A stretch of 52,862 bases of DNA, filler included, from Perkinsus olseni (taxonomy: Eukaryota), in the NCBI GenBank assembly GCA_013115125.1. It is 2 parts of 2 records of this genome, joined end to end, with 100 filler letters (N's around TTAATTAATTAA, not from the genome) between each part and the next. Parts side by side here need not be neighbours in the genome. Positions count along the whole stretch, not along the records: positions 1 to 26,401 come from JABANN010000483.1; 1 more part is not named here. One strand, written 5' to 3'. The translations under genes and the position numbers were made by a program. The notes below the pieces were generated by a model that was not told the DNA's origin, did not search any database, and was given only the letters and a program-made list of their open reading frames with translations. Of this stretch, positions 749 through 43,252 are shown in pieces; within the stretch, counting starts at the first letter, position 1; each line of letters starts with the position of its first letter.

Positions 749-2061
749 TCAAAGAGAAAATCTTGACGCGGTTATGGGCCATTCTTGATGAGATACCACG
801 AACTTATATTCGGACAGTACCAACTCGGACACTTGAATCCCCCGGCCATATCGTTTCGCGAACGGTTCGCGGGAATCAAGCTGATATGACCGGCTCCTGA
901 AATTCCATACTATGGTGGGACATCCTGGGCCGAAGTGCCTGCCCGTCTGAAAGAAGTGGAGTACATCCCATACTTAAGGGCGTGCTGTGCCTCACTTGCA
1001 CGTTCCAAGTCATCCAGCACGTACGGCAATAAGCAGTAGTTCTCATGATTTAGTGATCAATTCTCTAACCAAGCCGGTCTCACCCGCGAAGTTCCATTCG
1101 AACTTGATTTCCTGTCGGCGTGTGGCTGGTTCGGTGAAGTTTCTCCCTTCTTAAGGAATGTGCATTGAGTTACTGAGTGCAAAGCAAGTGCCTCGGTTGG
1201 CTGGCGAGCGAAGTGCCACCGTCTCAAGTGGTCCTGTCCGAATTGGGTCAGGCCGCCCAGCCGTTTTTGTCCGAGCTGCCACCGACTCAGCTGATGGTGG
1301 TGGGTGACGACAGTGACGACCCGTGAGTCACTCACGGGTGGTGACTTCCGCCACTACTTTCAGTCGTGTCCCTACTTGGCACCTGCACGGAAGAGGGAGG
1401 CTGCGGGAGTGCCCCACCATCTCTACAAGATTGTGACGGATTTAAACCGTAAGGCTTTCATTCGTTTACGGCGTGTTCACACAAGGAACGCTGGAATGAC
1501 TCGGCAGAGTTGCCGCTGAGGTCATCAACCCGCTCAGAGTAGGGACAGGGCGCAAATGGAGCCGCGACACCTATACGGCAGTTTTTGACGTCACTTTACG
1601 GTGTTGCACGGTGTAGCCATGCGTCGGGAATAGTTCAGCCAAGTGGTTCACAGCTCACCACTCCTCGTGCGCCTTCTTCGATGAGTTTACACGGCCGCGA
1701 ATGACTATCAACTCACTACCGCCTGTAGCTGCGCTGTCCTATCACGGGCTAGAGTGTACGTTCAAATGTTGAGACGTACGGGTGTGGAACACGCAAGCGC
1801 GGGGGAGGACGCGATGAGTAATCACAGCGCGGTAACGCTTCCGGGCTCATGCTTCGTGCGAACGGCAACAGCGCCCTCTGTCTCGTTGAAGGCAGCTTAT
1901 ACCGAAAGACCGGATAGACGTGCTTTCTCGGCCACTCAGTTTGCTTCTGCCTCGAAATCTTTGGCGGCAGCTAACACGCTCGCTAGCCCGCTGTGCCAGG
2001 ATAATAGCACCCACGGTATCCTTGCTCTTCAGCTTCACGACAGCTCCTGTCTTCTCCCCCA

Positions 2062-2220
2062 ATGCGCTTCGCTATCCTCATGGTCGCTGCAACCCTCATG
2101 GCCACCTTCGGTCTCAAAGTCGGTGCCTCGCCGAGAAAACTCAATTGGGGCGGATGCCCTAAGAGTTGCCCTTCTCTTTACCACTGTGGCTGTGATCAAC
2201 ACGGCTGCCGTTGCACATGA
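2062..2220 (+). CDS. Secreted six-Cys peptide, type A copy 1 (52 aa)
   Basis: Hand translation MRFAILMVAATLMATFGLKVGASPRKLNWGGCPKSCPSLYHCGCDQHGCRCT*; hydrophobic N-terminus; paralogues at 4045, 6456, 10568, 12414, 24351. Confidence 0.85.
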   Translation: MRFAILMVAATLMATFGLKVGASPRKLNWGGCPKSCPSLYHCGCDQHGCRCT

Positions 2221-4044
2221 AAATGCTATTCGTCCTCACAGCATCTATCAGGGATATTTCATAAGCTCCTCAGTGATGGACGTGGCTAGAACGTCGAGGC
2301 CCCCCTGTTGTCCGACTTTTTCTTTCTCGGTTGGCTGCCTTGCTCACCATTGGAAAACCTGGCAGACGGCGCTGCTCTGATTTTCCCCAGTTGCGCAACT
2401 GCTCTCCGATGGCGGAATGAGGCAACAATTGAGAGATGTTCCCTCCCTGTATGGTGAAATATCGCTGCTCATTATGTAGCATTCACTAGTCGGAATAGTT
2501 TATATCGGCATCAATCATGTTTTTTTCGTCTGTAGTGACGCTCTAGGTGATGCGGAGTCCGCACTGCGAAAGTTTTGCTCGGGCCGAGCCATGGCCACTA
2601 GTCCCACTTTTAGCTTTTAATCGGGTCGTCGACGGCCTGGACTACATTTGATCGCAGTGCTTCGAGGCTCTGCATTCAAGTCCCCTCCATCGAGTTAGAT
2701 AGTACTGCGTTCAGTCCATCGAACATTATAATGAATCTCGTACCGCATCCAATGCAGCGCATCGAGAAATCGATTGTACGCATGGTACAGCATGGCAGCC
2801 GGGCTGCCGTAAATGCCTCAGTGGGCTCCATCAGAACTTCTGATTCAGAAGTTAGGGGCTCCGGAAGAGTTTGACCGCGAGTAACTGTACCGGCACTAAG
2901 GTCCCCAGGGTCTCGCCTCTCAAGTTGAGAGTCTCAACAGATGGTCTCGCGGATAGACACATCCCGAGAATCATGGACATGCCGGCGACATAATGGCGCC
3001 GGCAGCGCCGTCACTGTCTCGCGGGTCGGGCTAATACAACGGTGTATCATACACCGTGTATGCATGCGTGTCAGCCAGGCTTTGCCTGTACAATTCGCAC
3101 TCACTTGATTCCACCTTCCACGATTAATGTACAGTGCAGGGAGCTCCGATGCGCAGCCTGCGAATATGCAATATTTCCCTCTTTCTAGCAGTCTCCTTGT
3201 CTCGCCGTGAGTTCGTACTCGGCCGCACGCATAAGTTCAGACGTCCTTCGCCACCAGTGATCGTATACGTGACGGAGAATTCAATTCTGGCGGGCTTCAA
3301 TATGAGTGGAAGCTGCAAGTCAGTGCGAGCTTGCAGCGCTGATAGTCCTCATCCGGATCCTACCAGATCTCGACTGGACCGTCGTGATCATGCCATTGCC
3401 GGTGTTGATAGCTCTGCTGCTTAGAGTATTCCCGGTTATTGGCGAGAATTGCAATTGAAGCAGATTGCCCTTTCAGCGTGAGGAAGCGGGAGCAGCGCTC
3501 ACAGCATTTATCTATCTCTGTTTCTCATCAGGATCTCATCTCCTTCTCTTACAACTATGCATCTGAATATCCTCGTGTTCGCTGCATCTCTAGCGGCGAG
3601 CTTCGGTGACCAAGACAGATTCTGTCTGAAGATAGGGAGGGCAGGGGAACTTCTGTCTGACAGAACGTTGCGGTTAGGTACGAGTGCTTCGGTGTCCCCA
3701 TCTCAATCCTCATAGTCAGAGGTTTCATTCTCGACTTCTCCGTCGCTTCGTACGTGCGTACGCTCTCTGTACGCTTTCGTGCTTCGTGCGTCCAATACGG
3801 TATTGGCAATACCCCTCGCAATCGTGTGCATTCTTCGTCATGTTATTGAAAGCAGGTTCCACATAGCTTCACAATGAGATCAGTCCCCCCATTCTTTGAA
3901 CCCTGTCTCAGAAGCGACAACAAGCTCGCAAGTCTGTTGTACCTCAGCCTCAGCCACTTGGGTACCACGATAAAAGCGGTCACAACATAATTGCTCTTCA
4001 GCCGCTGAAATTCAGACTATCGACAGCCCCTGTCTTTTCCCTCA

Positions 4045-4197
4045 ATGCGCTTCGCTATCCTGATGTTCGCTGCTACCCTTGTTGCCACCTTGAGTATCAA
4101 AGACGAGGCCGCGCCGGACACTTCTAACTTTAAGTTGGGCGGATGCTCCCAGTGCCTTTACCAATGTTATTGCGATACTCACGGCTGTCGTTGCTGA
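4045..4197 (+). CDS. Secreted six-Cys peptide, type B copy 1 (50 aa)
   Basis: MRFAILMFAATLVATLSIKDEAAPDTSNFKLGGCSQCLYQCYCDTHGCRC*. Confidence 0.85.
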   Translation: MRFAILMFAATLVATLSIKDEAAPDTSNFKLGGCSQCLYQCYCDTHGCRC

Positions 4198-4855
4198 CGA
4201 AAGCGTCATTCGTCCCAGCAGCATCTATAGGAGGTGCATCAATCACATGATGTCAAGGGGTTGGCCACCGTGTGTTGAGCTCTCCGGGCCTCAACACGTA
4301 TTAGGCAGTGCGTAACTGATGTACAACTGTAGGTAGGCATTGTGTCCACTTAGTTAGCCCCACTTAAACGGTGCCATCCACAGAACGCTAGTCCTAGGTG
4401 TTAGAAAGTACTTGGATGGTTTCGACCGTGGTTGCTCAACTCCAACTCAACCGAACGGTGATCCCATTGAAGTTCTTCATAAAGTTGACTTGACCATTTT
4501 ACCGTCGCACCCACTACGGGGTTGAGTTCCACGCAACGATTCGAAAGGATATCACTCGACCGATATCACAGCCCACAGAAAAAATGACATCATAATTCCT
4601 GAAAAAATATCAAGATAACATAATAACACGACCGGAGATGATAAACAATAAGCTCGATGGCAACGGAGGTACAGCCACGGCGGACGGTGCACAAGCTTAT
4701 GCAGTTGATGGAGGATGCTAGAGACCCACAACCCATCAAAGACCCCCGCAAAGGTGCATTTCCGACGGTGGATTATCGTGTTCACACCGGCCACGGATTC
4801 AAAAGGCATTTTTGTCAAGAAGATGTGATTAGCCAATGAAAGGCGTTCTCCCCGA

Positions 4856-5245
4856 TTAGCATGCCGTCAAAGGGTAGTTGAATAGGTCAACGGCATGGAG
4901 TGTCTTGCCGTCGTACTTCAGGAGGGCGAGCTTATCAGCGCCAATAGGTGCGCCTATCTGCTTGATAAGGTCCTTCAGTTTGTGGGTGTCAATGACCGTC
5001 ACATCGCCGCTCGATGCATCGTACTTATAGGGAACATCTGTCTCACTGCCGCTTCCTTTTTTGCCAGTGGAGGGAATCCATGTGGCCTCGATGTCGAATG
5101 CGGACTCGCTTCGTATGGTTACCTTGATAGTCCCGTTACCTACTAATGGGATATCGGGAGACCCACAATAGCTACCAGATGGTCTGGTCCGGAGGATGGC
5201 GTAAGCTCCGACCAGAAGAAAAGTAAAACCTAGAAGACTGCCCAT
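4856..5245 (-). CDS. Secreted hypothetical protein (129 aa), beta-rich, lineage-specific type
   Basis: ATG at 5245 gives MGSLLGFTFLLVGAYA (signal-like) then PSGSYCGS...YPLTAC*; intronless; one N-terminal and one C-terminal Cys. Confidence 0.7.
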   Translation of the reverse strand: MGSLLGFTFLLVGAYAILRTRPSGSYCGSPDIPLVGNGTIKVTIRSESAFDIEATWIPSTGKKGSGSETDVPYKYDASSGDVTVIDTHKLKDLIKQIGAPIGADKLALLKYDGKTLHAVDLFNYPLTAC

Positions 5246-6455
5246 CGATCGTCCAATATTATAAACTGAGATGGAAATCTTAACTCGGCACTGGTAAGTC
5301 GGCTGTGTTAACGTTCGATGTGTCGCCAAGTGTAAACCGCCCTCTTGTGAGTCGCCAGGTATCAATGGTCAGGCTGGACACATTACGATTGCAAAGCGAA
5401 GGGTAAGCGTCACAGTTGAAAGGAAGCACGCATGCACGCTGAGGTCGGGCGCATGCGCCCCCTATACTCATTGACGGTCTAGTACCACGGCCACATGAGC
5501 TCGACATTATCATGTAGGCCCGCAATGTCTCGTGCCTTGCTACCGGCCCTACCATGTAGACTAGATTGTGGTCATAGCATGATAGCTGGAACGACTTGAC
5601 GCTGCGGTCGTGTACCCACCCAGAGCGGGGACATTGCGCAAAGATATCCGCGACATGAGTTGGAGACTCTCGAATCGAGAGTTTTTGAGTCAAAAAAACG
5701 TCACAGTAACGTCGTCACTTGACGAGCTGCATTGAATTATCAGCCTCCAGCGCGTGAGTCTCCAGCGCCAAAGTGTGGTAATTTACCCTCCATACTCTGA
5801 AGGGTGGGACTCGGACAGTCTATCCCAAGGGATCGACGCTCCTCAACAAGGTGACGTGCCGTTATTGTAGTCTACTGTGCACCCAAATGCTGACCGCGAG
5901 CCCTCAGGGCCCAGCCCTGCGCCCGGGTGCGATGGAATATTTCGAAGTAGTACCCTAGTCCCGGCTCTATCAATAAACTTGTTTTGTTGAATGCTGCAAA
6001 GCCCGTTTCGCGGGGAAGATATGTTTCACAACGATTCGCACGCATCAACCACCGTACGCTGTATAACGCCTGCCATTCAACTGGGGCTGACAAGTTATCC
6101 TGGATATCACGATGTAGCTAGCCATCCTGATTAGTCTAATCAACTGGTTTACAGTTCACCACTCCTCGCGCACCTCCAGAAGGTGACCTCCTCCGACAGC
6201 TGCGAATGACTATGTACTCACTACCTCCCGTAGTTGCGCTGTCCTATCACGCGTTAGCGTGACGTCATCTGCACGCAAGCGCTGAGGAGAATGTGGCGGG
6301 CTAAGCGCAATGAAGGTGAGGTAGCGGTTCTGGTCTCATGTTTCGTATATCGTACCGAGAGACCGGATGGACGAGCTTTTCTCCTCTGCCACCGTAACAG
6401 CACCCCACAACGTACTTGCTCTTCAGCTTTACGACAGCCCCTGTCTTTTCCCTCA

Positions 6456-6617
6456 ATGCGCTTCGCTATCCTGATAGTCGCTGCTACCTTCACGGCCACC
6501 TTCGGTCTCAAGATCGACGCCTCGCTAGACACTTCTAGTCTCAGGCTGGGCGATTGCGATCACTGCCCTCCTGGTTACCACTGTGGCTGTGATGTGCACG
6601 GCTGCCGTTGCCTATAA
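6456..6617 (+). CDS. Secreted six-Cys peptide, type A copy 2 (53 aa)
   Basis: MRFAILIVAATFTATFGLKIDASLDTSSLRLGDCDHCPPGYHCGCDVHGCRCL* (3' half of ORF 6291..6617). Confidence 0.85.
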   Translation: MRFAILIVAATFTATFGLKIDASLDTSSLRLGDCDHCPPGYHCGCDVHGCRCL

Positions 6618-7146
6618 AAGTGTTATTCATACTCACGGGCCGTGAGTCATGCATCCACCGGGGATATTTCATAGAATCCCCATCGATGGATGTGGCAAGA
6701 ACGTGGAGAGGCTGCCACCTTCAGTCCGAGTTTCTATTTGTACGCTCGGTTGGCTGCCTTACACACAATCGAGCATCCAATCCGACACCCCTTCGGGCTT
6801 TGATTTTTCCCCAGTTTCCCAACTGCTCTTCGATGACGGTTCTGAAACTAGGCAACAATAGAAAGATGTTGCCTTCATGTATGGTGACAAAACGCGGCTC
6901 ATTATATAATATTCACTTGTCGGAAGAGTTTATATCAACACCAATTGTCGTTATCCGTCTATGTTGACGCTCTTGAGTGTCGCACATTTTGCTCGGGCCG
7001 AGCCATGGCCGTTTGTCTGACTTTCAACTTCCAATCGGGCCGTAGAAAACCTAGACCGCATTTGATGGCGGTGCTCTGCGACAATTTCGCATTCAAGCCC
7101 CCTCCTTCATGTTAGATAGGGAACTGTGTTCAGTACATCGAACAAT

Positions 7147-7576
7147 GGAGTTTCACCCGTGTTGTGTAAAACGCTAGTGTCAAACGCATAACGCATCACG
7201 CAGCGCGAAATAGACGATTTTAGAGCTCAGAACGCGAAAAACGCGTAGGCGTTAAACATACCGTCATCCATAACGCGTTGGCATAACGCGCGAGAGGTAA
7301 AACATAATCAACAGCACAACAAGAAATTCAAACGATAGAAACCTGGCGGCAGGCCTATTACCAGTTTGCTGATGATGAAGGAAATCGAAGTTAATTGAAA
7401 TTCTATAAGCGCAAACCATCCTGGAGGCTTATTCTCTTCTCTGTTGTTGGTTGTGTTCACGCAGTTAAGTCTCGTGATGGTAAGTGAATCACTTAAAGTG
7501 ATTCCCGCGTTGTGTTGTGTTTCACGCGTTCAACACAATGCTTAACGCGGTAAACTCGTTAAACAGGTGAAACTCC
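7147..7576. mobile_element. Non-autonomous DNA transposon (MITE), 430 bp
   Basis: 11-bp TIRs GGAGTTTCACC / GGTGAAACTCC flanked by AAT on both sides (3-bp TSD); absent from paralogous sites at ~2725 and ~11235. Confidence 0.8.
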
Positions 7577-10567
7577 AATATGCTGATTCACCTACTGTAT
7601 CCGATGCAGTGCATCGTGAAATCGTCTCAAATTGACACGAGGTGCAATTGACACTGTCAATTTTACTGTACAATTTGTGCACATGGTGCAGCATATCGCG
7701 GCTTAAGTCCCCACGGTATAACTAAGAAGAGGCTGTCCTACATGCCTCAGTGGGCTCCATCAGAAGTAAGGGGCTCTGGGAGAGTTTCACCGCGAGTAAC
7801 TGTACCGGCAGTATACGGTATACTGGTCTCACATATACCCAGGGTCTCACATCTCAACAGATGGTCTCGCCGATGGACACATCCCGAGAATCATGGAGAG
7901 ACTCCGCTCTACTCTGCCAGAATGACTGGTATTCACTTGCACGATTCGCCAGTGAATCGCGGCTAGTCCCCTTTGCCACAGTCTCCCGGATGGAACCGTC
8001 ACGGTTCAACCGTGGTGAGAGTCTGCACGCGGTGGAGCAAGCCCCGGCTATCCACTGGATAGTATCCAGGTCTGAGCTTCGTGCGGTCCGTTGGTCCAAC
8101 TTTACCAGATACTCGGTTAACCACTCGGCAAGGGTCGCATTACGGATCGAGTATGCTCCCTCGAAGTACTGAATGATGGCGCCGGCAGAGCCACCATTGA
8201 CCCTCGGGTCAGGCTAATACAACGGTGTATGCATGCGTGTCAGCCAGGCTTTGGCAAAGCCGCTTTGCCTCTGCAATCGCACTCATTTGGTTTCACCTTC
8301 CGCGATTAATGTACAGTGCAGGGAGCTCCGATGCGCAGCCCGCGAGTATGCAGTATTTCCCTCTTCCTAGCATTCTCCCTGGCTCGCCATGAGTTCGTAC
8401 TCGGCCGCACGCATAAGTTCAGACGTCCTTCGCCACCAGTGAACGTATACGCGACGGAGAATTCAATTCTGGCGGACTTCAATGTAAATGGAAGGTACGA
8501 GTCATTGCGATCTCGCAGCGCTGATGCTCCTCATTGGGATCCTACCAAGATCTCCTCGACTGGACCCTCGCAATCATGCCGTTGCCGGTGTTGGTAGTTC
8601 TGCTGCTTGGAGTAACTTCCTGGTCATGAGTTGGCTAGAATGCTACTGGAGAGCATCGCAATCCTAGCGTGAGGAAGCAGCATAACGCAGCACTCATAGC
8701 ATTTTTCTATCTCTGCTTTTCATGAGGATCTCAGCGCCTTTTCCCACAACTCATGCGCTTGGAAATCAACACGAAAATATTCAAACTTTGAATTATTCAA
8801 ATTGAATATCTTCGTGTTCGCTGCATCTCTAGCGGCGAGCTTCGGTGTTGTAATATCGAGTTCGTTCAGGTGAGCGCCCCAAAGACTGCTGATGAACACA
8901 GGTCTCCAAAGAGTGACGAAACCTGCACTGAAGTAGCCACATTCATAGCTATGCAGGAGAAATGCCAGAAGAGCGCATAATGGGACCGACTAGACTGGTA
9001 TAACATTCGGTACCGAAGAAAACATCTCGCCTGCCGTCCCTATCATCAGAGGAGGGGGTTGCAGTAATTGCGGTGAGTATTGCATCTGCACTCCTGCCTC
9101 TTGCCATTGCAAGTAATGATTGTGATCAAGAAAACTGTATCCCCACTCTCTGTCACCGGTGGTTATTCATTTCATGCTTGGTTAGCTCGGTTGCCCGCCC
9201 CTGGACGACCTATCAGTCGGTGCTGCTTTCATTTTTCGCGGGTCGCCCAAGACTCTTAAACGGCGGTTCTGAGTTAAGGTGACGACCGAGCAAAGCTCTT
9301 TTAGCCCATGTGCAGCTGCTAGCCGTGATTCCCGGTGTATGAAACTTTCATAATGAAAGTATACCCTTCATTCTCCAACACTGAGTAATCGGGTCGTAGT
9401 AGACCCGTGCAAGAGTTGCTCACAGTGCTTGCCGATGAATCCGTATCAAAGCTAGTCCCTTTTTAGAGGATGTCGCTGTTTTCAATCAATGACCAATCAC
9501 ATGGTATTGCATCGGACCAGAATGGCCTCACAGTGGCATCGTGAGTATCGTAACATCTTGCACAGCAACGGCGATAGTGGCGGTACTTTAACTTGCAAGT
9601 CATGGCCCACCACAATGAAGTCTTTGTAGAGGCTCACCCAGAATCGGCCGCCTTCCATCCAGTGCAATTCTATCCAGCTCATTTCATACATCGGGCAGCG
9701 CGACGCTGCCAGCTCCCATCCAGAATCTTTTCGCCCGGGGTAAGTATGCGGATCCTGATTGCAAGGGCGCAGCCGTTGATTGGAATCAGGATCCGCATGC
9801 TTACCCGGTAGGGCCTATCTTAATTCGAATCATCAACCACCAGCCGAGCCTCCTATCGTCCCTCACTGAGGGAGGGACCCTCAGTCAACCCGCCATTGGG
9901 ATAGACCTTGAGCCGCTCCCACGATGGCCTACTTTCCTAACCACCAAACAAGAATTTCTTCATTCCTGCCTCCACGAGCAAGCTCTAACGCACCTGCTGC
10001 GTCCACAATGGTACTACCATAAGTCCAAAGGTTGGTGACGACTTTCGTTCCCTATGCGCTTCTGCTCTTGTGCATCCAATTGTCCCTTCAATCGTGCGCA
10101 TTCCTTGTCACTCTATCGAAAACACGTTCCCCACAACTCCATAATGAGATCAGTTTCCTCAGTCTTTGAGCCTTGCCTCGAACAGCCACGCTGTACTGAG
10201 CTACAGCGCGGCAATGGGCACTATAGCGACACCAATGACAACTACCTGCATACCCTTACCCCAAGGTTGCTACGTGATACGTACTACGTATTACGTAGTA
10301 CGTATGCTCGCTCCCTGTGCGCTTTCGCTCTTTGCGCGTCCTATCGTCTACGCAATCTTGTGCGTTCCTCGTCATGCTATTGAAAATATTGCTTCCCCGT
10401 AGCTCCGCGATGCGATAAGCTTCCCAATTCCTCGAGTCCCGTCTTAAAGGCGGGCAACGGGCTCGCAAGTCTGTTGTACCTCAGCCTCACCCCTTCCGGT
10501 GCCACGATAACGGTGCTCTAAGCAGACTTTCTCTTCAGAGTATCGACAGTCACTGTCTTTTCCCTCA

Positions 10568-10723
10568 ATGCGCTTCGCTATTCTGGTGTTCGCTGCTACC
10601 CTTGTTGCCACCTTGAGTATCAAAGACGAGGCCGCGCAGGACACTCCTAACTTTAAATTGGGCGGATGCTCCCAGTGCCTTTACCAATGTTATTACGATA
10701 CTCACGGCTGCCATTGCCGATGA
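10568..10723 (+). CDS. Secreted Cys peptide, type B copy 2 (51 aa, five Cys)
   Basis: MRFAILVFAATLVATLSIKDEAAQDTPNFKLGGCSQCLYQCYYDTHGCHCR*; fourth Cys TGC>TAC. Confidence 0.75.
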   Translation: MRFAILVFAATLVATLSIKDEAAQDTPNFKLGGCSQCLYQCYYDTHGCHCR

Positions 10724-12413
10724 AAGTGTCACTCGTCCCAGCAGCGTCTTTCGGGGATGTTTCGAAGCTTTCCCATCGGTGGATCTGGTTATGAAGTGAA
10801 GGCCCTTTCTCTTCTGGTCCTAGTTTTTGCTCCATCGTCGATTACCATCCGACGGCTGACTATCTCAATCACTACTGGACAACGTATCTGGCAGTGCTGG
10901 CCTGTTGCCCGACGGTGGTTCGCGAATGAGCTTACCATTGAGAAATGTTGCTGTCACCAGTCGCTGCTCATTATGTATTATTCCCTCCATCATCATTATC
11001 GACCAGATATTCTTTATGAACGCCCCAACCTTTGGTCATTCCTTTACGTCAGTGCAACGGACTCAGTAAGTAACGTCACAGATCTTGGTGCTGCAGACAT
11101 TTTACTTGAGCCGAGCTATGGCCGCTCGTCCGACTTGCCCTTTTCCTGGGCTTCGGTCGTAGCTTTTTTTTCGACGATCCCGTATTTAAGCCATCTCCCT
11201 CGTATAGGAAGGTACTGTGTTCAGTCAATCGAACAGTATCAATCGCGAACCACATCCATGACGACAAGGGCTGAGTCCAAACTTATGTTGCGTTCTCCAA
11301 CCCCACACATGCAACAGGCAGTGCGCAATGGGTGCACCACTGTTGGTGGGCCTTGGGACAACCGAGAAGGCTCGGCCTAAACGGCGCCATTCACAGAACA
11401 CCAGCCCTAGGAGGAAAAAATTACTTGGACGGGTTTAATTGTGGTCGAGGGACAATCCTGTGACTCACACGCTGAGCTGCAACTCAACTAAACGCGATTC
11501 CAATAAACTGAGATGGAGATACTTAACTCGGCAATGGTAAGCCGGCTGTGTTAACGTTCGATGTGTCGCTAAGCGGAAACCGCTCTTTGTGGGTCGCCAA
11601 ATATTCATGGTCAGGCCGGTCACTTTACGCTTGCAAAGCAAAGGGTTGGCGCCGCAGTTGATATGGAGCACGCATGCTCACCCAGATCAGGTGTGGATGG
11701 GACAGCAAATACCCGTGTACGCCCGTTGGTCGTCCAGTTACCCGGTCACATGGTAGGCCTCCAATCTCTCACGCCTCACTGCCGGCCAAACGATGTGGAC
11801 TTGAGTGTGGCCACAGCATGATAACTAGAATGACTCAGCACACTACAACGATGTGGTCATGTACCTCGCGGGGTAGGGGACATCGGCAAACTCGGACTCG
11901 CGTACGAGAATTCCTGACGTCACTTGCCGAGCCGTGTTCACACGAAGTAGGCAGCCATCGTTACTAGTCCATTCAATTGGTTCGCAGTTCACCACTCCCG
12001 GCGTATCTCCTTTGATGAGTTGACACGGCTCTCCAGCAGAGAATGACTATCCACTCACTTCCCCCTGTAGTTGAACTGTCCCATTACGAGCTAGAGTGAC
12101 GTGACGTACTTCTAGCTCGTAACGTACTTCATCTGCACGCAAGCGCTAGGGAGAATTCGGTGGGTTTAGAGTAATCGTGGAGAGGGAAGGTCCTGAGCTC
12201 ATGCTTCGTATGTCCAGCAGCGGCTCTCTCTGCTTTGTCGAAGGCAGCTCATACCGAGAGACCGGATAGACAATCTTTCTCGGCCACTGTATTTGCTTCT
12301 GCCTCGGAATCTCCGGCGGCGGCTAGTAGGCTCGCCAGCCTGTTGTGCCAGGGTAACAGCACCCGCGACATACTTGTTCTTCAGCTTAACGACAGCCCCT
12401 GTCTTCTCCCTCA

Positions 12414-12569
12414 ATGCGCTTCGCTATCCTCATGGTCGCTGCTACCCTCATGGCCACCTTCGGTCTTAAAGTTGATGCCTCCCCGGACAATCTCAAGTTG
12501 GGCGGATGCGATGACTGCCCTTCTGGTTACCACTGTGGCTGCGATATACACGGCTGCCGTTGCCTATGA
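12414..12569 (+). CDS. Secreted six-Cys peptide, type A copy 3 (51 aa)
   Basis: MRFAILMVAATLMATFGLKVDASPDNLKLGGCDDCPSGYHCGCDIHGCRCL*. Confidence 0.85.
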   Translation: MRFAILMVAATLMATFGLKVDASPDNLKLGGCDDCPSGYHCGCDIHGCRCL

Positions 12570-13098
12570 AAGTGTTATTGATCATCTCGGCATCCACCGG
12601 TGATATTTCATAGCCTCCTTATTGATGGACGTGTCTAGAACGTGGAGGCCCCCTTGTTCTCCGAGGGTCTATTTCTACGTGCGGATGGCTGTCTACCACA
12701 CCATTGGGCAGCTCTATTAGACAGCGCTGCTATGATTTCTCCCAGTTGCCCAACTCCTCGCCGAGGGCGGTTCTTAAATGGGGTAGCAATTGAGAAATGC
12801 TGCCTCTACATGTGGTGACATAGCGCTGCTCATTATGTAATATTCACTTGTCTGCAAAGTTTATATCAACACCAATTGTGGTTATTCGTCTGTGTGTTCA
12901 CGCTTTAGATGGTGCGAATGTTTTGCTCGGGCCGAGCTATGTCCGTTAGTCTGTTTTTCACCTTGCCAGTCGAGCCGCGGATGGCCTGGATGAGATTTGA
13001 TCGCGGTGCCCTCCCATGGTCGAAGTCCGACAATTCCGCATTCAACTCTCCTCCTCCATTCAGGATAGTGCTGTGTTCAGTCCACCGATCAGGTCAAT

Positions 13099-13135: not shown

Positions 13136-14926
13136 TCATGAGTTTTTGAATACTCCGCGAAAAATGGATCCAGTCTAGCGCGAAACGGGATAATCACTGC
13201 TCCGCGGTTGACACGATCGCCATGCGCAATTCACCATTTTCACGTTTCGGGCGACAGTGCTACGCACTGTCCACGTTTCCTGGGTCTTAGCTCACAACAG
13301 GCGATTTTTTTGAAAGACTATTGGTGTCATTGATTTAGTGATGGCTACATCTCGAGAGTTGCCGGCTCCATAATATAGAGAGACTCTTGAAGAGACTCTT
13401 GAAGAGCCACTCTTCGCCACCCTGGAATGACCAATAGTCACTCACACCGTGAGTCACACGTGTGAGTGCGTATGCACAAGCGTGTGAATCACACGCAAGT
13501 GAATAGCGCCGCTAATAGGGCTAGTCCCCCCTGCCACGTTGATGAAACCATCTGACTCAGAGTTCGAACCTCAGATGATCTGAGGTTTGTCCTGTCGAGT
13601 GCTTGAAGTTTACGGGGTGGTTGGTTGAACCTTCGGCGAGCGTCCAATGTCGGGACGAGTTTGCATCCTCGGAGTGTTGAAGACACGTCGCTGGCAGCGC
13701 CATATGGTGGGATGGCAGCCACTGTGACTTTTCGCGCCAGGCTAATGCAAGTCTTCAGCGGTTGACCTCAGCTTAGCTTAAGCCTTGAGCCTTTGTCGGG
13801 AGTTCAATTGACTGGGTGAACAGAACAGTTCATCCCCAAACCACACCCTAACCGCTCTGGAGGGGGTCTACTTCGTGTGAGACTGCTAACCTTCCGCGGG
13901 CTGAGACAGCCCAGCTGTCACTAACCTACTAGAACTAGTCGGTGGACGGCCAGCAGCCCCGACGTACGGGCCACCGGTCCACGGTTTTACCTACACCCTC
14001 CAGATCAGGCGTCTAACAACAGCGTATGCACTCGTCTTGTCCGGGCTCTGCCACTCTAATCCCTCTCAGCTGGTCACAGCTCTCACGAGTCGTCAAGCAC
14101 GACTAATTCACAGCACGAATAGCTCCGATCGGCAGCGTGACGCTGCGCTCTTCCTATCAGTGTATCTGCGTCGCCGTGGGGTCGTACTCAGCCGCACGCA
14201 TAAGACGATCCTCGCTAGCAGTGAACGTATACGCGAAAACTTTTCGTCGAAAAGAGCTGTGAGCCTGCCGAAAGTGGCAGTTCAACTGCCATCACATTGC
14301 AATCCTCTCCAGGCTAAACTCGTGGGCATCCTACTCGCTGTACAACTCGCCACATGTACGTTCATGCAATCGGCTGCCCTGGTCTATACGGACTGCCTGC
14401 GTGCAATCGACCTGCTAACCTGAGCGTCCTGAGGTCATGGCGCTGGATGTGAACTAACCATAGAAAGCATGAAGCGTGTGCACTTCCGGCCCGGGAGTTC
14501 CGGGGTGTCGCTCGGTCACCGAACGGGCTACTTTTTGAGCTACTACTTATACTATCTGATACGGGACCGGGTCGAACTTCGGTCCGGAGCCGTCCGCTTG
14601 CGACGCGAGATGTCGAGGATTCAGAGTGGCAGTCATTTGTGCCATCTCCAGTGTCGTTACTAATAGCGGCTCATTCAGGCTTATTCAGGGAGGTCGGGTC
14701 ACGAAGACTGGACTGCAGAGCTCTGACCGCATCATTTGATCCCACAGCGGAAAATTAGGGGTTCGCCCACAGTAGTGCCCGACAGGCACAACTTGGATTT
14801 TCCGCCTCTGTTTTGTACGTCGCCCACAATTGAATATTTGCTGTCGAGAGAAAAATACAAAAATATAAATATATATATAAATAGCAGCAGCGTGAGCAAG
14901 CGTCGGAGGATTGGCGACTGGGACGT

Positions 14927-15021
14927 TGACCGCGAGGATGGAGGAAGATGCAGAAGAAGTCGGTCGAAGCCTTAGAGCAGGAAGACGTGATGACTAATTC
15001 ATGTATTGCTCGTTATTAAGG
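14927..15021 (+). repeat. 95-bp identical dispersed repeat (second copy 23578-23672)
   Basis: TGACCGCGAGGATGGAGGAAGATGCAGAAG...GCTCGTTATTAAGG identical at both sites. Confidence 0.9.
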
Positions 15022-15958
15022 CAAGTTCCAATCTGAGACGGCGAGAGTCGTATCGCATCGACGAGAAGCCACGTTACGCAGCCGCAGAGCGCACCTTGAT
15101 GGTCCTGATTCGAGTTTAGCTGCTTATAACGACTAATAGTCGCCGCCTTCTCTTTCCACTGGATACTCTTGTACGCAGCGTCCCGTGAATCGCTAGTTTG
15201 CCCCGTCACGGTTGTTTTCTCTTCTGACCATGTGTTTCTGGTGAAGAGGGGAATCTGCACTGTCTACATAACTCCACTTCCTATCTGCTCTATCTCGTTC
15301 ACTATGATCCCAATCTACTTATGTTGTTTTCTACAACTACACCTACTGCAACGAGATAGTTCATATCGTTATTGGTAAGAGTTTTACTCGTCTCTTGATT
15401 TTTAAATCTTCTCTAAGACTCACTGTCAACGTGGCTCACTCTCGTCATTCGATATTGACAACACGCAGTCTTCCACTAACGCAAGACTTCGAGGAGCCTC
15501 CTCAGGGGAGATAGCGTCGTCTATCCGTATCCGAGGCTAAGGATAGTGGCTTATACGATTATATTTTATTGACATGAAGCCTACCTAGACGAAGTTTATC
15601 TAACGAGATAAAGGGTGTCTTTTGCGCCTTGAGGACACAGAACACTACGCCCGAGTGCACAGCGGGAGGCAACCAACTTCGTGAATGACTGAAATAATAT
15701 TCTCAGTGAGAATGAGACCGTTGTACGGCCGAAAATGGATTAATAGTAATAACATTCATAGCAGAGAGATCCGCTCACCCAGCGTTGAGGTCCCGGGTCA
15801 GCTCGAGCTGTCTTCAGGATTCGCCCAATACCGGACCGGTATTACCGGTATAATACCGGCGGTATCAGGCGAAATCCGTCACAGCAGAATGTGAAAATAA
15901 TACCCCCCCCCGTGTTCGAAAAGCAAAACTGTTTCACACCCCACGAGGTCGCGTATCG

Positions 15959-16780: not shown

Positions 16781-19700
16781 TTGATGAATGGAATGTGCTT
16801 AATACAAGTGTCCGTGGAAGCTGAGATGGAACGTAAACTTGTATGGAGAGGAGCTCTCACAGAAAACGGTAGCAACTGAAGGCGTCAGCTGCAGTTCCAA
16901 CTACGGGACGGGACCCGACACAGCCAAATGAGCGCGGGGTGCAGTCCCATAGCTCGGAGGGCCTATGAAAACCCTCTCTATGGAAGAGCCTACTTTGCCA
17001 AACTTTCCTGATGCATGCGCACATTAGCTACAATCCAGTCCCTTAGGGACCGTCCCTAGCACACGCCTACAACTGTCTATACTAGACTGTCTACCTCTAT
17101 CACCCAGCAGGTACGATCCGGAGCGATCCCATGCACACAAATGCAAATCTCCTTAATGTAGCCGGCCGTTAGTGGCTTGCCTACCTCCTGCCGTTGTCAG
17201 TAGAGACTCATCAGAGACTGACCCCTGCTTACAGCACGCACTGCTTGGCACAGTGCCAATGACACTGCCTGCTCCGACAGGCTCCTTTAAGGTAACTTGG
17301 AGTAGTTCTAAACTCATCTTTGTCATATGTTCTGGTATGTAACATATCGTATGTTGTGGCCCCTTATTTCCTCGATCACAAGCATCGAAGATTGCTTTAC
17401 GATCTTTTGAAGTATGTGCGCAATATTCTACTTGCTCGCTCCGACTGTTACGTGTGTCTCCTTTACTCCACAGCATGTACTGACTGACTACGGCGCCTTC
17501 GCCTTCTATGGTGGCGCGGCCCGAACGCATGAGGTCGGATTTACGCACACAAGGACGCTGTTCAACACTAGGCACAGCGTGACTCAGACTATCTCATCGG
17601 CGTCTTGATAGAGATTATCAGACTGGGTAGAGTTTAAAACTCTGAGTTTTACCATAGATACATATCATCGGACAGGCTTTATGAGTATGAAATATGTCAC
17701 ATATTCCAATGACATGTATGCGGCCTCTTTGACATATTATATGTGTAGGCGGTAGGCGTGTAGGTGAATCTCTCTAGATTATGCTCGGCAAAGAGGCCGC
17801 ATACATGTCATTCAACCGTGAATAATTCACGGTTGAATTCACGGTGAATTCAAGTCTGTTCAACAAACTCCGTGAGATGCGCTACCACTGGTCGTCCACC
17901 AGTGAAAATGACTGCGAGCGGGTTTTTGAGCGGTTACACAACTATGGAACCTCAGCTCGCTCGCTGCAAGCGGATCATCTTATCAGCGGTGCTGATTCAT
18001 CAGCATGATTTGAGAAAGAACCCCAGGATTCCGCTAGCCATATGCCTGTTGAGTACCTAACGATAGACAGCAAGATTAACCGTAATGTTGCAAAGGCTTT
18101 GCCGCAAACTTCGCGGCGCAAATCCGAGGTCGTTCCTGGTTGCCTCGGCGATACTTATCAGACGCTAACACAGGGTTCCAACTTGTGGAACGCTGTAAAC
18201 TTGTAACTTCAACATACACACAACTTGGAATCTCAGGCACAGCGGCCTGCCGCAATTACAGTGTTTGGCGCCTTCATGATGTCACTTCCAAGATTGCCCT
18301 GGATGAAACGAGCATTGAAGAAATAAATCGCACGAAAGTACGTATGTACGAAAATTACTGGAGTCACTCCAGTGGAGTGCAGGCTGGGTAGTGCATCCAA
18401 GTGAGTATGATAACGAGCGATGGTCCGTAATAGCGGGATTGAATGTATCGAATCCAAAGACGCATGCAGTGCATGCCATGCACACACATGCGGAGTGTCC
18501 TCCCGTGGCACCTACGCGGGAGTCCCGCGGCGGGACAGTGATGAATGGAGGACAGAAGTAGAAAACCCCCAAAACCAGAAGAACATGAAGAGTGAGGGCG
18601 CGAATAACTAGGCGGTTGGGAGACTCCCTCCATGCCCAGGCCTCGGCAGTTGCATCCGGATTCTGGATCTCGGATTCGGGTTTCTGGAGGAGTTTCTAGT
18701 TCATCGTTACTGGCTTTGCCCGGAATTCGGGATTTTTCTGTTGCCTTTTCTGACAACCGGTATGTTGAACATTAGTGTGCTATGGTGATAGTGATTCAGT
18801 GCTACGCTCGTCATAGGAGACGATGGCCCATCGTCTCCTATGACTCGTTCCCATCGTCGATGGGAACGGAAGCTGCTAGCGTCCCACGGGAGTGTTTGTA
18901 ACCAGCCAAGCCTGAGGGACTCTGCCTATCTGTGAGGGTTTGTCAAACCCGGTTTGATGATTAAGCTTTAATCAAACTCTTACGCAATGCTGCCCTCTGA
19001 ACCAGAGGCTCTAGTTCAACTTGAACTGTTCAAGACAGACTCCTTTGCAAGGCTTCTTGAGATCTCTGTTGCGACAGACGAACAGTCTTCGCCGCGGCTC
19101 TCTCGTCGAAGTAGGCCAATGAATGGAGCCTCCAGCAATTCTGTTGCAAGAAAGTTTCTCGAGGAAACACAGCATCCTCAGATGATCAGTAACTCAGCAC
19201 TACTGAGTGTCGCTGAGTTTCGAGATCGTGGGGCACGGTCTGTGCCCCCTTCACTTCTACGGCGTGAGTGTGCGTCAAGGCACTGGCCCATTTAGAACGG
19301 ATTCGGATTCATTTTACGGGCGATTTTGATGGGTGAAATGAGATGGATGGAATGGCACCGGATGAAATTATAGTGGACGACTTTACACTGGAACAGATGA
19401 CCACTGGACGAAATTATACTGGATCAGTTGGGTTACCCCGCCCTAAAAGACGATCGTAATCGATCGTTAGAAGTGGGACATATAAGCTAAGCTTCAGTCT
19501 TCGGCGCTCGGCAGGCGCTGTCCACCCGCATGCGCTGAAGACTTCAGGCTGAAGTCACAGGTCACGCAGTTGTAATTGACACAATGTGCCGTTCGGGCCG
19601 TGCGTACACGTCGCTTGGGAGCCTTAGGCTGCCTAAGGATAGCAACAAGGATAGCAACAATAAGGATAGCAACAGACTGTCACTGAGTGGCGCTGAGGTT

Positions 19701-20617
19701 GGGAGCGGATGGTACTGCCGGATACTCGGCCGGTACGGAAGAATATTCATCAAACGCAGGAAGTTTCTTGAAGAAACTTTCTTCGAGAAACACGAAGAAC
19801 GGCGGCGTTGAATTTGAACGGCTGTGCGTAGCTGACAGAAGTGGGTGAACCGGATGAGAAAATCCAACATTAAAATGAAACTAATATCATTTCTCATGTA
19901 TATGCTGCAGCATCACCACAAGGCGAAGAAAAGAAGATGAGAATAGAAATAATCACAGCCGCTTCGTTAGTCATTTCTCGGAAAGACGTAGCTGTCCCGT
20001 CAGACCGAGGCCTCAACTGGGGGTTAGATGGTATTGAAAATTGTAACCCGATATACTCGGCGAGTGTTATGCGGCTAGGTTCATTTCGCCACAGGTAGGA
20101 GCTATCGTGAGCCCGGATTCCAGAGTAGGATGGACCATACAAGACTTGGTCTCAACGTGAGCCACGTTACGTGCCTCTCTAGTCGCGCCCGAGATTTCCT
20201 TCGAGATTGACAACACGCGAGACTTCAAGGAGGGGAAATAGCGTCGTCTCTACGTACCGAGGCCGATGGTAGTGGCCTATACGATTAGACCTTATTGACT
20301 TGAAGCATACCTCAGATGAAGTTCATCTAAGGAGAAACGGGGGGTCTTCTGCGTCCCGAGGACACGTAGCACTTCATTTTTCCACGCGTCATGAATGACT
20401 GACATGTTTTTTTTCGAGAAAAAAGGAGACCGCTGTACGGCCAAAAATGGGTAACAACATCTCTAGCGTAGAGACCCGCTCTTTCAGACCAGCTCGAGTT
20501 GGCAGTAGGGTTCGCCGACAACCGGTACTAGGCAAAATGTGTAATGATAGGGTGAGATAGCGATACCCTCATGTTCAAAAAACGAAACTGTATCATATCA
20601 CTTGAGGGCGCGTATCA

Positions 20618-21414: not shown

Positions 21415-24350
21415 GTTGTGACTAGGATGGGCTCACTAGAAACTAACGTCGAGGCTGAAATACGGCAGACTTATATTGGGAAGAGGTAACATTGAAATTC
21501 TCATTGTGGAAGCCTGCATCCCGAATTGCTCAGCTTGGTGATCACAGGGTGAGTAGATGACGGTAACAACTCAAGTTAGGAAGTACAGTTGCCTTTACGG
21601 GATACGACTCAACTCAGCCAAACGAGTGCTGGGTGCAGTCCAATCATGAAATCTCTCCAATGAAGAACTCACTTTGCCGAGCGATCTTGACGCGTACACA
21701 TATTCGCTATACATGTACTATACATGTACTCGTATACATATATGTACTCGAAGCTTGAGCGGCGCTCGTCTACATCTGTCTACACTAGACAGTCTACCTC
21801 GATCAGCCGCTGATAGAAGGAGACTGTCTTGTGCTGCTGATCATCAGCGAGCAGAACAGGTCCGGCTCTTCGCCTTTCGTTCTGCAGAAATACAGATGTC
21901 CTCACCATATCCATTCGTTAGTGAGCCAACTATGTCCCACGTCATCAGTGGCGACTTCTCACTACGTCGCCTTGCCTGCTTTCGAGTCTGACAGATATGA
22001 TGATGGGCGGAATCACATCTCAGCCAGGCGATCCACTGTCTTCTTCTTGCCGGGAGCGTTCGCCCGCTCGTCAAGTGTATCTCGAGTAGTACTCCATCCG
22101 CACTGTCTGTTCTTCCTAACATGTTGATCACCAGAACTAGGGATTACATGCCACTTTTTGAGTCCGCGCTCAATTCTTATTACCTCCTTCGGGCCAGCGC
22201 CTAATGGGTGTCCCTTGTACGGTACAAGTTGTACCTCGACAGGCTTCACCCGGCTGAGCCGGATCCATCGGCCCGGCTCCATCGGCCCGGCTCCTTCGTC
22301 CGTTGGTTTGAACGCGAGTGCGAGGCGGTTTCAGCGCTAGTAACACTTTCAACTTGCTAGTGTTGTGACCCCATGGTTGGTAAACTCGACCTGGTAAACG
22401 TAGACTTGAAAACCTTATTATCAGTCTGCTTATGATCACAAACGCAGCGATATGTAGCTCAGCGTAACACAATTAATGGAGACAATATCCACAGACAAGA
22501 TCGCACAATTGGAGACATAACACTGTTGAGGAGAGACTTACGTGCTCGGTACACGATGTACCACTCGCAGTACCATGATTCCTGGTACTGGAACTTCCTG
22601 GTCCAGGAAGGCGTTGATTATGTCGTTCTATTGCATATTGGAATGCCCTATGAATATTCGTGTTTCTACCGTGGAAACACCGTAGAAATTCTTCGTCGCT
22701 GACCTGCTAATCCTCAATGAGGATTCCTCATCGTGTTGGGCGGTTTCAGCGCGTTATGTCCTCGTACGAGGAATTCCTTGATAGGAGAGGGTCACTTCAG
22801 GAGTAGCGATTATATTCAGCCCCAGACTCTGGGGCCCAGAGCCAGGTTACCAAATTCCATGGCGTGATTAGCTGACTCCGAAGTAGCTCAGCTTCAGAAA
22901 AATCTATCGCACAGCCAGTCGTACGTATGAAAGCATCTGCACTGTCTACATAACACATTCGTGCTGTGCTTTTAGTAAAAGCTTTATACTAGCTTTGCAT
23001 TATCAATCCATTCCCTCTGAGAGAATCTCTCAACTCCCCCACTTCCTCTCTGCTCTATCTCGCTAACTATGAGCCCAATTTACTTATGTTGTGTTCTACA
23101 ACGACTGCCAAGAGATAGTGCAACGTACCAGATCCTTGTTTTTTCAAGAAGGTGCCCGTGCACTTGGTGAAGTTCACCGAGTACAAGGCGAAGTGTTGTT
23201 GGTATGCGGTTTAATGAAGGACCGATCTAACCCTACTTGGAGTTCATTAACGTCTTACAATCTGTGATTCGTGGTCTTCTCACTCCATCATGTGCGAAAT
23301 CAGCTATGAGGAAGTCAGGTTTGTTACTCGTCCATAGTAGGCGTAAGTTGTCGTTAGTCCTAAGGACTAGGGTTGTCGCGCGTCCTTTTCTTTGATTCTC
23401 GGTTTAGAATTCCATCGCATCGACACGAATGACTGCCTCAATGATGAATCACCTAGCGAAGCCCAGTAACTGGGCCCCAGTTCCGACCAGCATTATGCAG
23501 CGGCTATGTTCATCGAGACGGCGAGAGGGACAACCTCCCCTCCTGTCCGCTCCCGGCGCAGGCTCGAGCGGTCACCGTGACCGCGAGGATGGAGGAAGAT
23601 GCAGAAGAAGTCGGTCGAAGCCTTAGAGCAGGAAGACGTGATGACTAATTCATGTATTGCTCGTTATTAAGGAACGTTTCAATCGATTATACACGTGCCT
23701 CGATTATATACCTAGATCAACAGCCTGTTGACAACAGGACCTCCGAAGTGGTACGGCACGCCTGTGGACTTCGCACGCCCAGTCTGAGCTCTGATCGTTC
23801 TATGGGCAGATCGTTCTTCTGCCAGGGTCACCTACCAAAAGTCACTATGGCCGGATCACACTGGTGTTTCCGGCTCGAAATCTCGAAAGGAACTGCACTG
23901 TAACTCGGGAAAGTGTGGGTATTTGAGACGGGGTTCAAAGAAAGGGAAGAACCTGGACTCGAGGGGAGTTGAACGATAATGACTCATCAATAATAGATTC
24001 TACAGCGTAATCTAGCCTAGCGTAAGTTCTAGCCTAGAAAGCACACTCATGCACGCGGATGCAAGGCGCAGAATGATGCATGATACGAGTAGTTAGTAAG
24101 CAGTAGAGATCATTGTCACTATAGTGCACATCCTGGACCCTCCTTAGGCGGGAACATACACGGGTGACGCGTGTACCTCCATGAGCACCAATTTGTCTCC
24201 ACCACGCGAGACTGTCTCCCTTCTATGGGTGTGACGTGACGTCCACGTCATCGCCGATGACCTGCTGTTCATTGCTCCGTTTTTCACTGATGACAACATT
24301 CCTCCTCTCGCAGTTTTTACGACACTTTATATTTCCGTTTTCTAACACTC

Positions 24351-43006: not shown

Positions 43007-43252
43007 ACTCGAGCTTGGCGAGTCGGGCAGGGAGGCAGCGTTCTCTCCCTGAAATTTATCACTGTTCCAAGAAACAAGTCAACTTACACTGGGTTGCCTC
43101 TCCGAAGCGTTCCGAGTACGAAGACACACAGTCCCCAGAATCTCCGATCCATGGGACAAAACTCCAAACTTAGTAATACTATCCGCAAATACAGTACAGG
43201 CCCCAGTACAAGTCAATAGAAGCTATCCAAATCAGCCCACTAGCTACGTCAG

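Follow-up and report, generated by a model that had tools for sequence, protein, structure and literature searches.

Twenty-two-base scars in a tandem gene array of Perkinsus olseni as probable excision footprints of a hairpin-forming transposon

The stretch of DNA analysed here (the window; 52,862 nucleotides) comes from Perkinsus olseni, a parasite of molluscs, and comprises two contigs set end to end around a 100-base linker at positions 26402-26501 (44 N, TTAATTAATTAA and 44 N). The first contig was found to hold diverged tandem units, 72-82% identical to each other, which encode (i) small cysteine-rich peptides with a hydrophobic N-terminus; and (ii) a Perkinsus-specific protein family with a signal-peptide-like start. 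The genes of the second contig include those of a subtilase, a kinesin, a BET bromodomain protein, and others. The first ~26 kb of the window are dense in 22-base scars, and it is these scars, considered as probable excision footprints of a cut-and-paste transposon, that are the subject of this report. Since the window is two contigs placed end to end, its scar-rich first part and scar-poor second part represent a contrast of two loci.

All scars were found to follow one formula, in which a local 8-mer X gives X[1-7] + rc(X[1-8]) + X[2-8] (where rc represents the reverse complement), such that the product has 22 bases, or 14 more than the 8-mer. In this arrangement two odd palindromes of 15 nucleotides (nt) overlap, with the complement of X8 at the centre of the first and the complement of X1 at the centre of the second. 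The 14 extra bases derive entirely from the local 8-mer, and the scars have no sequence in common. When the whole window (52.9 kb) was scanned with this formula, 26 exact scars were identified together with 15, 18, and 29 at a minimum of one, two, and three substitutions, respectively; the corresponding chance means for zero to three substitutions, based on 40 first-order Markov simulations, were 0, 0, 0.3, and 5.1. Arithmetic gives an expectation for exact scars of 4^-14 per position (eight free letters fix the 22-mer), or about 2e-4 in the 52.9 kb. The scars span positions 694 to 27740, well beyond the 2830-11924 interval of the preliminary description. Almost all of those with two or fewer substitutions (57 of 59), and likewise 24 of the 29 with three, were located before 28 kb; the two halves of the window need not adjoin in the genome, which may account for the presence of 57 of the 59 scars in the first part. 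Scars with up to two substitutions cover 1166 of 27025 bases, about 4% of the 26-kb contig, at a density of about 2 per kb. Their clustering was marginal (16 of 52 gaps shorter than 120 bp compared with 10.9 expected, p ~0.04), and no scar was detected within the coding regions 15962-16777 and 20621-21411 or the small open reading frames (ORFs) 4045-4197 and 10568-10723.

The geometry of the scars was found to be narrow. When footprints were classed as X[1-7], k palindromic bases from the left, m from the right, and X[2-8], the sole excess was at k + m = 8 (26 cases), and the remaining classes were at or near chance, including the classical 16-bp class (1 found, 0.8 expected). Perfect palindromes with arms of at least 7 nt were almost exclusively odd-centred, with 100 in the window (91 of these within the first 26.4 kb) compared with three even-centred ones, the chance number being about 3.2 for each type; 70 of the 100 odd-centred palindromes lie at scar position 8 or 15. 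The restriction to odd palindromes implies that whatever forms them connects the two strands at an offset of one nucleotide. No two of the 55 non-overlapping target 8-mers were alike. A weak preference was nonetheless apparent among them: 17 have T at position 2, 23 have A at position 7, and 7 have both (background 0.25; binomial p = 0.004). Transposons of the hAT superfamily have the target consensus nTnnnnAn, and the preference observed here runs weakly in that direction.

Comparison between the tandem units was used to examine the state that preceded the scars. The preliminary description had listed six scars whose paralogous sites carry a single 8-mer, and direct reading of the sequence located all six pairs. 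In every pair the 8th scar base complements the last base of the 8-mer, as that description had noted of the palindrome centre, and the 15th scar base complements the first base of the 8-mer, a second centre that it had missed. A seventh pair was identified at 3792, for which both of the separate paralogous copies are in the 8-base state. Nine sites with an alignable paralog were available, of which seven display 22 bases in one copy and 8 in the other and two display a scar in both. Scars 2830, 2917, 3041, 3792, and 8247 are letter-perfect, although the units are 72-82% identical overall and 82-95% identical in the immediate flanks; perfect scars within flanks that differ by 5-18% fit young insertions rather than old ones. 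The paralogs with a plain 8-mer, together with these letter-perfect scars amid diverged flanks, bear out the view that the scars are derived events of +14 bp. A 22-mer of this grammar can only derive from an 8-mer. In principle, however, the 6-bp direct repeats within a scar could mediate a deletion that restores the 8-mer, and because such reversion is conceivable the polarity is not fixed by a two-copy comparison alone; most of the weight is carried by the perfection of the scars. The further suggestion that the scars are younger than the duplication was found not to apply to every scar. 2743-2764 and 7595-7616 are clearly one decayed scar at homologous places of units 1 and 2, and 3143/8325 is possibly another that is common to both. 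The process was therefore active both before and after the duplication.

The scars were also sought in further sequence data. Logan contigs were used from the runs X2, X5, and X6, which derive from two studies and some of which possibly represent the source sample of the window, as well as from a fourth sample, X7. The contigs of X2, X5, and X6 matched long scar-holding stretches with 0-1 differences. A contig of X7, a diverged and low-depth sample, matched 7964-8352 with 5 differences and no gaps and retained scars 7993, 8048, and 8247. Some library preparations do create palindromes, and with several runs possibly being the source of the window a sequencing or assembly artefact has to be weighed; it is scarcely credible, as runs of two studies and four samples carry the scars, including the diverged one. 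Because contigs of several runs and samples carry them, the scars are not an assembly artefact of a single data set, and because many are decayed by one to three substitutions, with one common to paralogous units that are about 75% identical, they represent real DNA.

When the spacing of the two complemented centres was relaxed, with X[1-7] and X[2-8] kept, eight further footprints were identified compared with a chance expectation of about 0.002 by arithmetic. The canonical product thus makes up 26 of 34 intact footprints. Both centres are complemented in 26 of 26 exact scars and in 8 of 8 variants, which follows from how the scans were built, and the numbers found are far above chance. The variants are informative as to how the canonical scar may arise. 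The footprint at 3613-3665 displays separately the two inverted copies that are merged in the canonical scar. In the footprint at 18810-18868 the left and right sides each independently yield X = ACGATGGG, and its long arms indicate that hairpins can open far from the tip in P. olseni. The filler of one variant is an exact inverted copy of DNA nearby (17708-17731; Table 1), and templated insertion of this kind is typical of microhomology or polymerase-theta-type end joining. For the fillers of the other variants no convincing template was detected in the window, the best matches being of 11 and 12 nt and far off. A 20-base version of a scar was also observed at 13441-13460 (X = CTCACACG), the inverted copy of which is two bases short at its middle; slippage has probably removed a TG from what was once a canonical scar.

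The same evidence bears on whether the scars could be replication errors, in which the growing strand would copy 8 nt from the complementary strand before it returns to its original template. Template switches do yield short inverted duplications, and the 24-nt inverted copy of nearby DNA in one footprint would suit such an origin; yet nothing in the model explains why the switch should last exactly 8 nt with one-nucleotide offsets at both ends in 26 of 26 exact cases. Nor would template switching yield odd palindromes alone (100 versus 3 even) or a two-fold-symmetric target preference, and the variant with arms of 17 and 11 nt is still centred on the complements of X8 and X1. Template switching at quasipalindromes would be expected to give variable lengths set by local complementarity, in contrast to the constant geometry observed. 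We therefore regard a replication error as very improbable.

We propose instead, with a probability of roughly 80%, that the scars are excision footprints of a hairpin-forming cut-and-paste transposon with 8-bp target duplications. Insertion of such an element would duplicate the 8-mer X at either side of it. For excision, the transposase would nick one strand one nucleotide inside each duplication and join it to the opposite strand, so that each flank would become a hairpin with, at its tip, the complement of the duplication base that touches the element (X8 on the left and X1 on the right). Host nucleases would then open each hairpin at a distance of 8 nt or more from its tip, which would leave a 3′ tail of X[1-7] + rc(X) on the left flank and a complementary tail on the right flank. 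The tails would be complementary because both derive from one duplication, and their last 8 nt, being perfectly so, could anneal, after which flaps would be trimmed and gaps filled. The product would always be X[1-7] rc(X) X[2-8], of 22 bp and +14. Where annealing failed, joining of the ends would instead yield longer palindromes or take up filler copied from DNA close by. A hairpin intermediate, as put forward in the preliminary description, thus accounts for the scars including their complemented centres, with the hairpin chemistry read back from the products. At the repair step, the 8-nt complementarity would explain the canonical product, and the one 24-nt filler is an inverted copy from about 60 bp away. 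The preliminary description named no agent; the 8-bp duplication and the one-nucleotide offset point to a hAT-like transposase combined with microhomology-driven repair. An 8-bp duplication, a flank hairpin, and a complemented terminal base jointly describe hAT footprints, and we lean, with less assurance than for a transposon as such, toward the hAT superfamily specifically.

Several observations weigh against this proposal. The product is nearly uniform, at the 26 of 34 intact footprints given above, and we know of no precedent for this among hAT footprints. Four of the variants with filler have inverted copies of 7-8 nt, near the duplication length, which random nicking would not predict; one could suppose that the tails annealed, lost their flaps, came apart, and were joined anew, which is an ad hoc explanation. 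A search of the window for 8-bp direct repeats around inverted termini (12 nt, up to 2 mismatches) returned none, and a relaxed terminus search of the window returned six matches, about the chance number and none convincing. No transposase domain was detected with Pfam in 184 (77 + 107) stop-to-stop ORFs of at least 80 amino acids in the window or in the 15 longest ORFs; nor was an integrase or reverse transcriptase domain found among any of these. An element of hAT type, which would have short inverted termini and a transposase with a BED finger and a hAT dimerisation domain, was thus not found in the window. More weakly, neither a filled allele nor a 14-bp presence/absence polymorphism was seen among the read-layout rows listed. 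Finally, the only published superfamily with 8-9-bp duplications found for Perkinsus is Merlin, of which P. marinus has two preserved ORFs (PMC8101967).

Individual candidates for an element or a filled or empty site were weighed as follows. One of the six relaxed matches, at 1494-7927 with termini containing GGCAGAGT, would span a whole paralogous unit and was set aside. The joint 7179->7314, which skips 134 bp in all four runs, has no flanking duplication. A replaced stretch in X7 (5621-5694) was considered as an empty site and rejected, the right part of scar 5660 being still there. An insertion specific to unit 2 at ~7893-8170, flanked by AATCATGG/AATGATGG, resembles a filled site and is at most a candidate, since inverted termini are lacking and the expected scar is not seen in unit 1. 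The high-depth stretches 6802-7468, 14806-15472, 18808-19474, and 22143-22799 were read through and revealed neither termini nor duplications.

This lack of an element in 52.8 kb, despite ~60-80 scars, is what would be expected if no mobile element were involved and a host or domesticated transposase-like nuclease made 8-bp staggered hairpin breaks in arrays of secreted-protein genes, with the scars as by-product or purpose. The concentration of the scars in one 26.4-kb contig rich in secreted-protein paralogs suits that possibility, as do the conserved Merlin-like transposase ORFs without transposon ends in P. marinus, of which the authors ask why they were kept (PMC8101967). An element that excises often by cut and paste is, however, also expected to leave many scars and few copies. 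Two flanking copies of X moreover need a prior 8-bp duplication, which insertion gives and a simple break does not, and the scars avoid the coding parts and do not diversify them. A host nuclease is thus improbable, and equally so is its extension that a host-kept enzyme repeatedly breaks and reseals the intergenic DNA of secreted-protein arrays, so that structural variation would arise in this protist parasite in a programmed, V(D)J-like way. To our knowledge, a host-nuclease scar system is without precedent.

A closer competitor retains the hairpin and annealing steps and replaces hAT by another superfamily with 8-9-bp duplications, MULE or Merlin; the window yielded no transposase that would discriminate between these. 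The MULE element Muta1 duplicates 8-9 bp and leaves its flanks as hairpins (PMC5499845), and 8-9-bp duplications are also a property of Merlin, for which related ORFs were reported from Perkinsus marinus and from three of the eight Perkinsidae genomes that were searched (PMC8101967). Counter to this reading, more than 90% of Muta1 excisions in yeast are precise and a different gap-repair route is proposed by the authors (PMC5499845). No report of a one-nucleotide offset was found for MULE or Merlin, and in the excerpts of PMC8101967 the cleavage chemistry of Merlin is undescribed and the P. marinus copies have no recognisable ends. The complemented centre, as documented in PMC5873905, agrees instead with hAT, and the T2/A7 preference tends weakly the same way. 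A MULE or Merlin origin is accordingly considered rather unlikely.

Under the transposon reading, the substitution classes can be used to gauge how often scars form. With steady formation and decay by substitution, the classes should be of equal size, at rate/(22 × substitution rate). The observed classes of 26, 15, 18, and ~24 (chance subtracted) are roughly flat with a mean of ~21. Over 27 kb this corresponds to ~450 scars for each unit of substitutions per site and to at least about 1 scar for every 60 point substitutions, the value being a minimum since scars are lost to indels. A count of scars per substitution in the aligned units, which the preliminary description had proposed, gave a rate of the same order, with two or three one-sided scars for ~107 differences between 2990-3560 and 8173-8756.

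If the proposal is true, the scars represent a machine-readable fossil record of transposon excision in Perkinsus, an early-branching relative of dinoflagellates and apicomplexans. The 22-letter grammar would flag, with essentially no false positives, each site that an element left, and insertion and excision rates would become measurable from one genome. Transposon transit, rather than accumulation, would then be a major source of indels and new palindromes in the intergenic DNA beside secreted-protein genes, and the uniform product would indicate that hairpins open far from the tip and that annealing and templated synthesis join the ends. Isolates could also be typed with the scars as clean presence/absence markers, and the same grammar may be applied to any genome to gauge how widespread this outcome is.

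The coordinates of the scars, their empty counterparts, and the non-canonical footprints are collected in Table 1.

Table 1. Scars, empty sites, and variant footprints in the window. Exact scars are from the whole-window formula scan unless stated; strand is not assigned.
Feature	Position	X (8-mer)	Remarks
Exact scar	2830..2851	ATCAGAAG	paralog 8-mer at 7759-7766
Exact scar	2917..2938	CTCTCAAC	paralog ATCTCAAC at 7851-7858, first base differs
Exact scar	3041..3062	GGTGTATG	paralog 8-mer at 8224-8231
Exact scar	3792..3813	CCAATACC	8 bases in two unit-2 paralogous copies (near 10076, 10338)
Exact scar	7481..7502	TAAGTGAT	
Exact scar	7993..8014	GAACCGTG	retained in X7 contig
Exact scar	8048..8069	CTATCCAG	retained in X7 contig
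Exact scar	8247..8268	GGCTTTGC	paralog 8-mer at 3078-3085; retained in X7 contig
Exact scar	8787..8808	TTTGAATA	within larger unit-2-specific insertion with more palindromes
Exact scar	9338..9359	TATGAAAG	
Exact scar	10277..10298	ATACGTAG	weaker scar-like matches overlap at 10270, 10284 (nested events or shadows)
Exact scar	15828..15849	ATACCGGT	~110 bp downstream of stop of gene 15962-16777 (-); 1-substitution neighbour at 15845
Exact scar	17629..17650	AGAGTTTT	
Exact scar	18358..18379	CTGGAGTG	
Exact scar	18462..18483	GCATGCAC	
Exact scar	18515..18536	CGCGGGAC	
Exact scar	18936..18957	GGGTTTGA	
Exact scar	19013..19034	AGTTCAAG	
Exact scar	19763..19784	GTTTCTTC	
Exact scar	22214..22235	CTTGTACC	
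Exact scar	22710..22731	ATCCTCAT	
Exact scar	22820..22841	CCCCAGAG	
Exact scar	23461..23482	GCCCAGTT	
Exact scar	23717..23738	TCAACAGG	
Exact scar	24694..24715	TCCTCAAG	
Exact scar	27719..27740	AATGGGGG	sole exact scar of second contig
1-substitution scar	5698..5719	ACGTCACT	paralog 8-mer at 11917-11924
1-substitution scar	5660..5681	TTCGAGAG	from substitution-tolerant scan
2-substitution scar	20154..20175	AACGTGGC	ancestral 8-mer, from paralog at 15428-15435
Old decayed scar	2743..2764		homologous to 7595-7616 of unit 2; older than duplication
Old scar, unit-2 counterpart of 2743-2764	7595..7616	CTGCATCG	1 substitution
Two overlapping decayed scars (7647, 7660)	7647..7681		unit 1 has single 8-mer ATTGTACG; nested or repeated hit
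Empty (8-base) state for scar 2830	7759..7766		
Paralogous empty site (scar 2917)	7851..7858		
Paralogous empty site (scar 3041)	8224..8231		
Paralogous empty site (scar 8247)	3078..3085		
Paralogous empty site (scar 5698)	11917..11924		
Paralogous empty site (scar 20154)	15428..15435		
Non-canonical footprint	3613..3665	AGACAGAA	both 8-nt inverted copies, 23-nt filler between
Non-canonical footprint	9859..9884	TCCCTCAG	12 nt (8+4) separate flanking copies
Non-canonical footprint	13549..13584	CATCTGAG	right palindrome extends 3 nt past duplication
Non-canonical footprint	17691..17745	AATATGTG	24-nt filler 17708-17731
Filler template	17789..17812		exact reverse complement of filler 17708-17731, ~60 bp downstream
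Non-canonical footprint	17817..17850	CGTGAATT	palindrome arms 14 and 10
Non-canonical footprint	18810..18868	ACGATGGG	palindrome arms 17 and 11 nt, centres complement X8, X1
Non-canonical footprint	21801..21849	GATCAGCG	21-nt filler
Non-canonical footprint, second contig	33477..33532	CAGAATAT	with filler

Several genes and other features of the window were also recorded. The small ORFs at 4045-4197 and 10568-10723 (both + strand; 50 and 51 codons) have a hydrophobic N-terminus and a Cys-rich tail with 7 and 6 Cys, respectively, and diverged copies were observed near 2038-2248, 6432-6628, and 12380-12605; by their sequences these ORFs look like a family of small secreted cysteine-rich peptides. 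The small-ORF block, at 91% identity between the two units, is better conserved than any other part of the tandem array. The gene at 15962-16777 (-) encodes a Perkinsus-specific protein with a signal-peptide-like start, which a hypothetical protein of P. olseni matches at 100% identity and one of P. marinus at 66%, with several paralogs; a second copy at 20621-21411 (-) matches in two frames, which indicates a frameshift or an intron. On the second contig, a subtilisin-family protease gene at 28706-30091 (+) has an ORF of 461 codons that is 100% identical to a P. olseni protein and belongs to a large family in this species (19 P. olseni matches at 48-100% identity). About 1 kb upstream of it, 27485-27661 (+) encodes a 59-residue fragment like the N-terminal part of the subtilase and adjoins scar 27719. 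The second contig, which is almost scar-free, also has housekeeping-type genes at 35310-36271 (-) and 41615-43078 (-), including a multi-exon kinesin motor and a bromodomain/BET protein, as well as a tandem duplicate at 37599-38019 and 38972-39389 (82% identity), one copy of which overlaps an ORF that matches Pirin weakly (E = 9e-5, short of the Pfam cut-off). In three runs the region 14806-15472, especially 15271-15360, had a summed contig depth of 5,000-10,000 compared with ~90-200 elsewhere; many contigs diverge at 15271-15281 and 15360, and 14847-14891 was also singled out. This region consists of a very high-copy short sequence and an AT-rich simple stretch with no obvious termini.

With regard to earlier work, no literature on hAT elements in Perkinsus was found by full-text search, and neither such scars in Perkinsus nor a dominant 22-bp hAT footprint was reported in the full texts searched, outside of which fall Yu et al. 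2004 and Colot et al. 1998. Footprints were not mentioned in PMC4316626, and PMC8062965 held nothing specific about end joining in Perkinsus. The closest described counterparts are the footprints of the hAT element Ac/Ds in plants, Saccharomyces cerevisiae, and Candida albicans, covered in PMC5873905, which itself cites Coen 1986, Yu 2004, Huefner 2011, and Lazarow 2012. Ac/Ds footprints are like the Perkinsus scars in that (i) both copies of the 8-bp duplication are kept minus the element-adjacent base; and (ii) palindromic (P) nucleotides centre on the complement of that base. The arms extend up to 20 nt in yeast, where microhomology is frequent at the joint. The Ac/Ds footprints described there are, however, heterogeneous (28 types among 128 in Candida, mostly with 0-3 P nucleotides) and were obtained as reporter revertants, whereas the Perkinsus scars are natural, fixed, and germline-equivalent at ~2 per kb. 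In Perkinsus, unlike Ac/Ds, a single product with one full 8-nt inverted copy common to both sides accounts for 26 of 34 intact footprints.

Other hairpin-forming systems were found to share some of these properties. For the hAT elements Hermes and hobo, Zhou et al. reportedly showed in 2004 that the first nick falls one nucleotide into the flank and that the hairpin forms on the flank. Such chemistry predicts odd-centred palindromes with a complemented terminal duplication base, as observed in the scars; unlike Hermes and hobo, no Perkinsus transposase or element is tied to the scars, and their chemistry is deduced from the products alone. Ascot-1 of Ascobolus immersus, a Ds-like element with 8-bp duplications, is said to have been described by Colot et al. 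in 1998 as leaving long palindromic footprints that were read as hairpin evidence, and these footprints are said to be extensively diverse, with no single dominant 22-bp product. The coding joints of V(D)J recombination and the Transib/RAG family resemble the scars in that a hairpin on the flank is opened away from its tip, palindromic bases are added, and end joining sometimes brings in filler. RAG/Transib hairpins form without the one-nucleotide offset and so give even-centred palindromes, and the Transib duplication is 5 bp. A Transib/RAG-type footprint was rejected, since even-centred palindromes occur only at chance here (3 versus ~3.2) and the duplication is 8 bp and not 5 bp. The P element leaves an 8-bp duplication and retained pieces of its termini from a 17-nt staggered cut; a P-element footprint was rejected as the extra 14 bases of the scars are wholly local and share no sequence among scars.

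For MULE and Merlin the duplication length is compatible, and a flank hairpin was shown for Muta1, the excision of which is mostly precise (PMC5499845). A further likeness concerns repair, as the duplicated target of mPing supplies the microhomology that makes repair uniform (PMC4561436). With mPing, direct copies anneal and the site is restored precisely, whereas in Perkinsus inverted hairpin-derived copies would anneal to give +14 bp. Excision footprints of hAT type with P nucleotides and microhomology-guided end joining are both already known; new within the literature searched are the dominance of the full-length-inverted-duplication product, its natural density of ~2 per kb, and its occurrence in a perkinsozoan.

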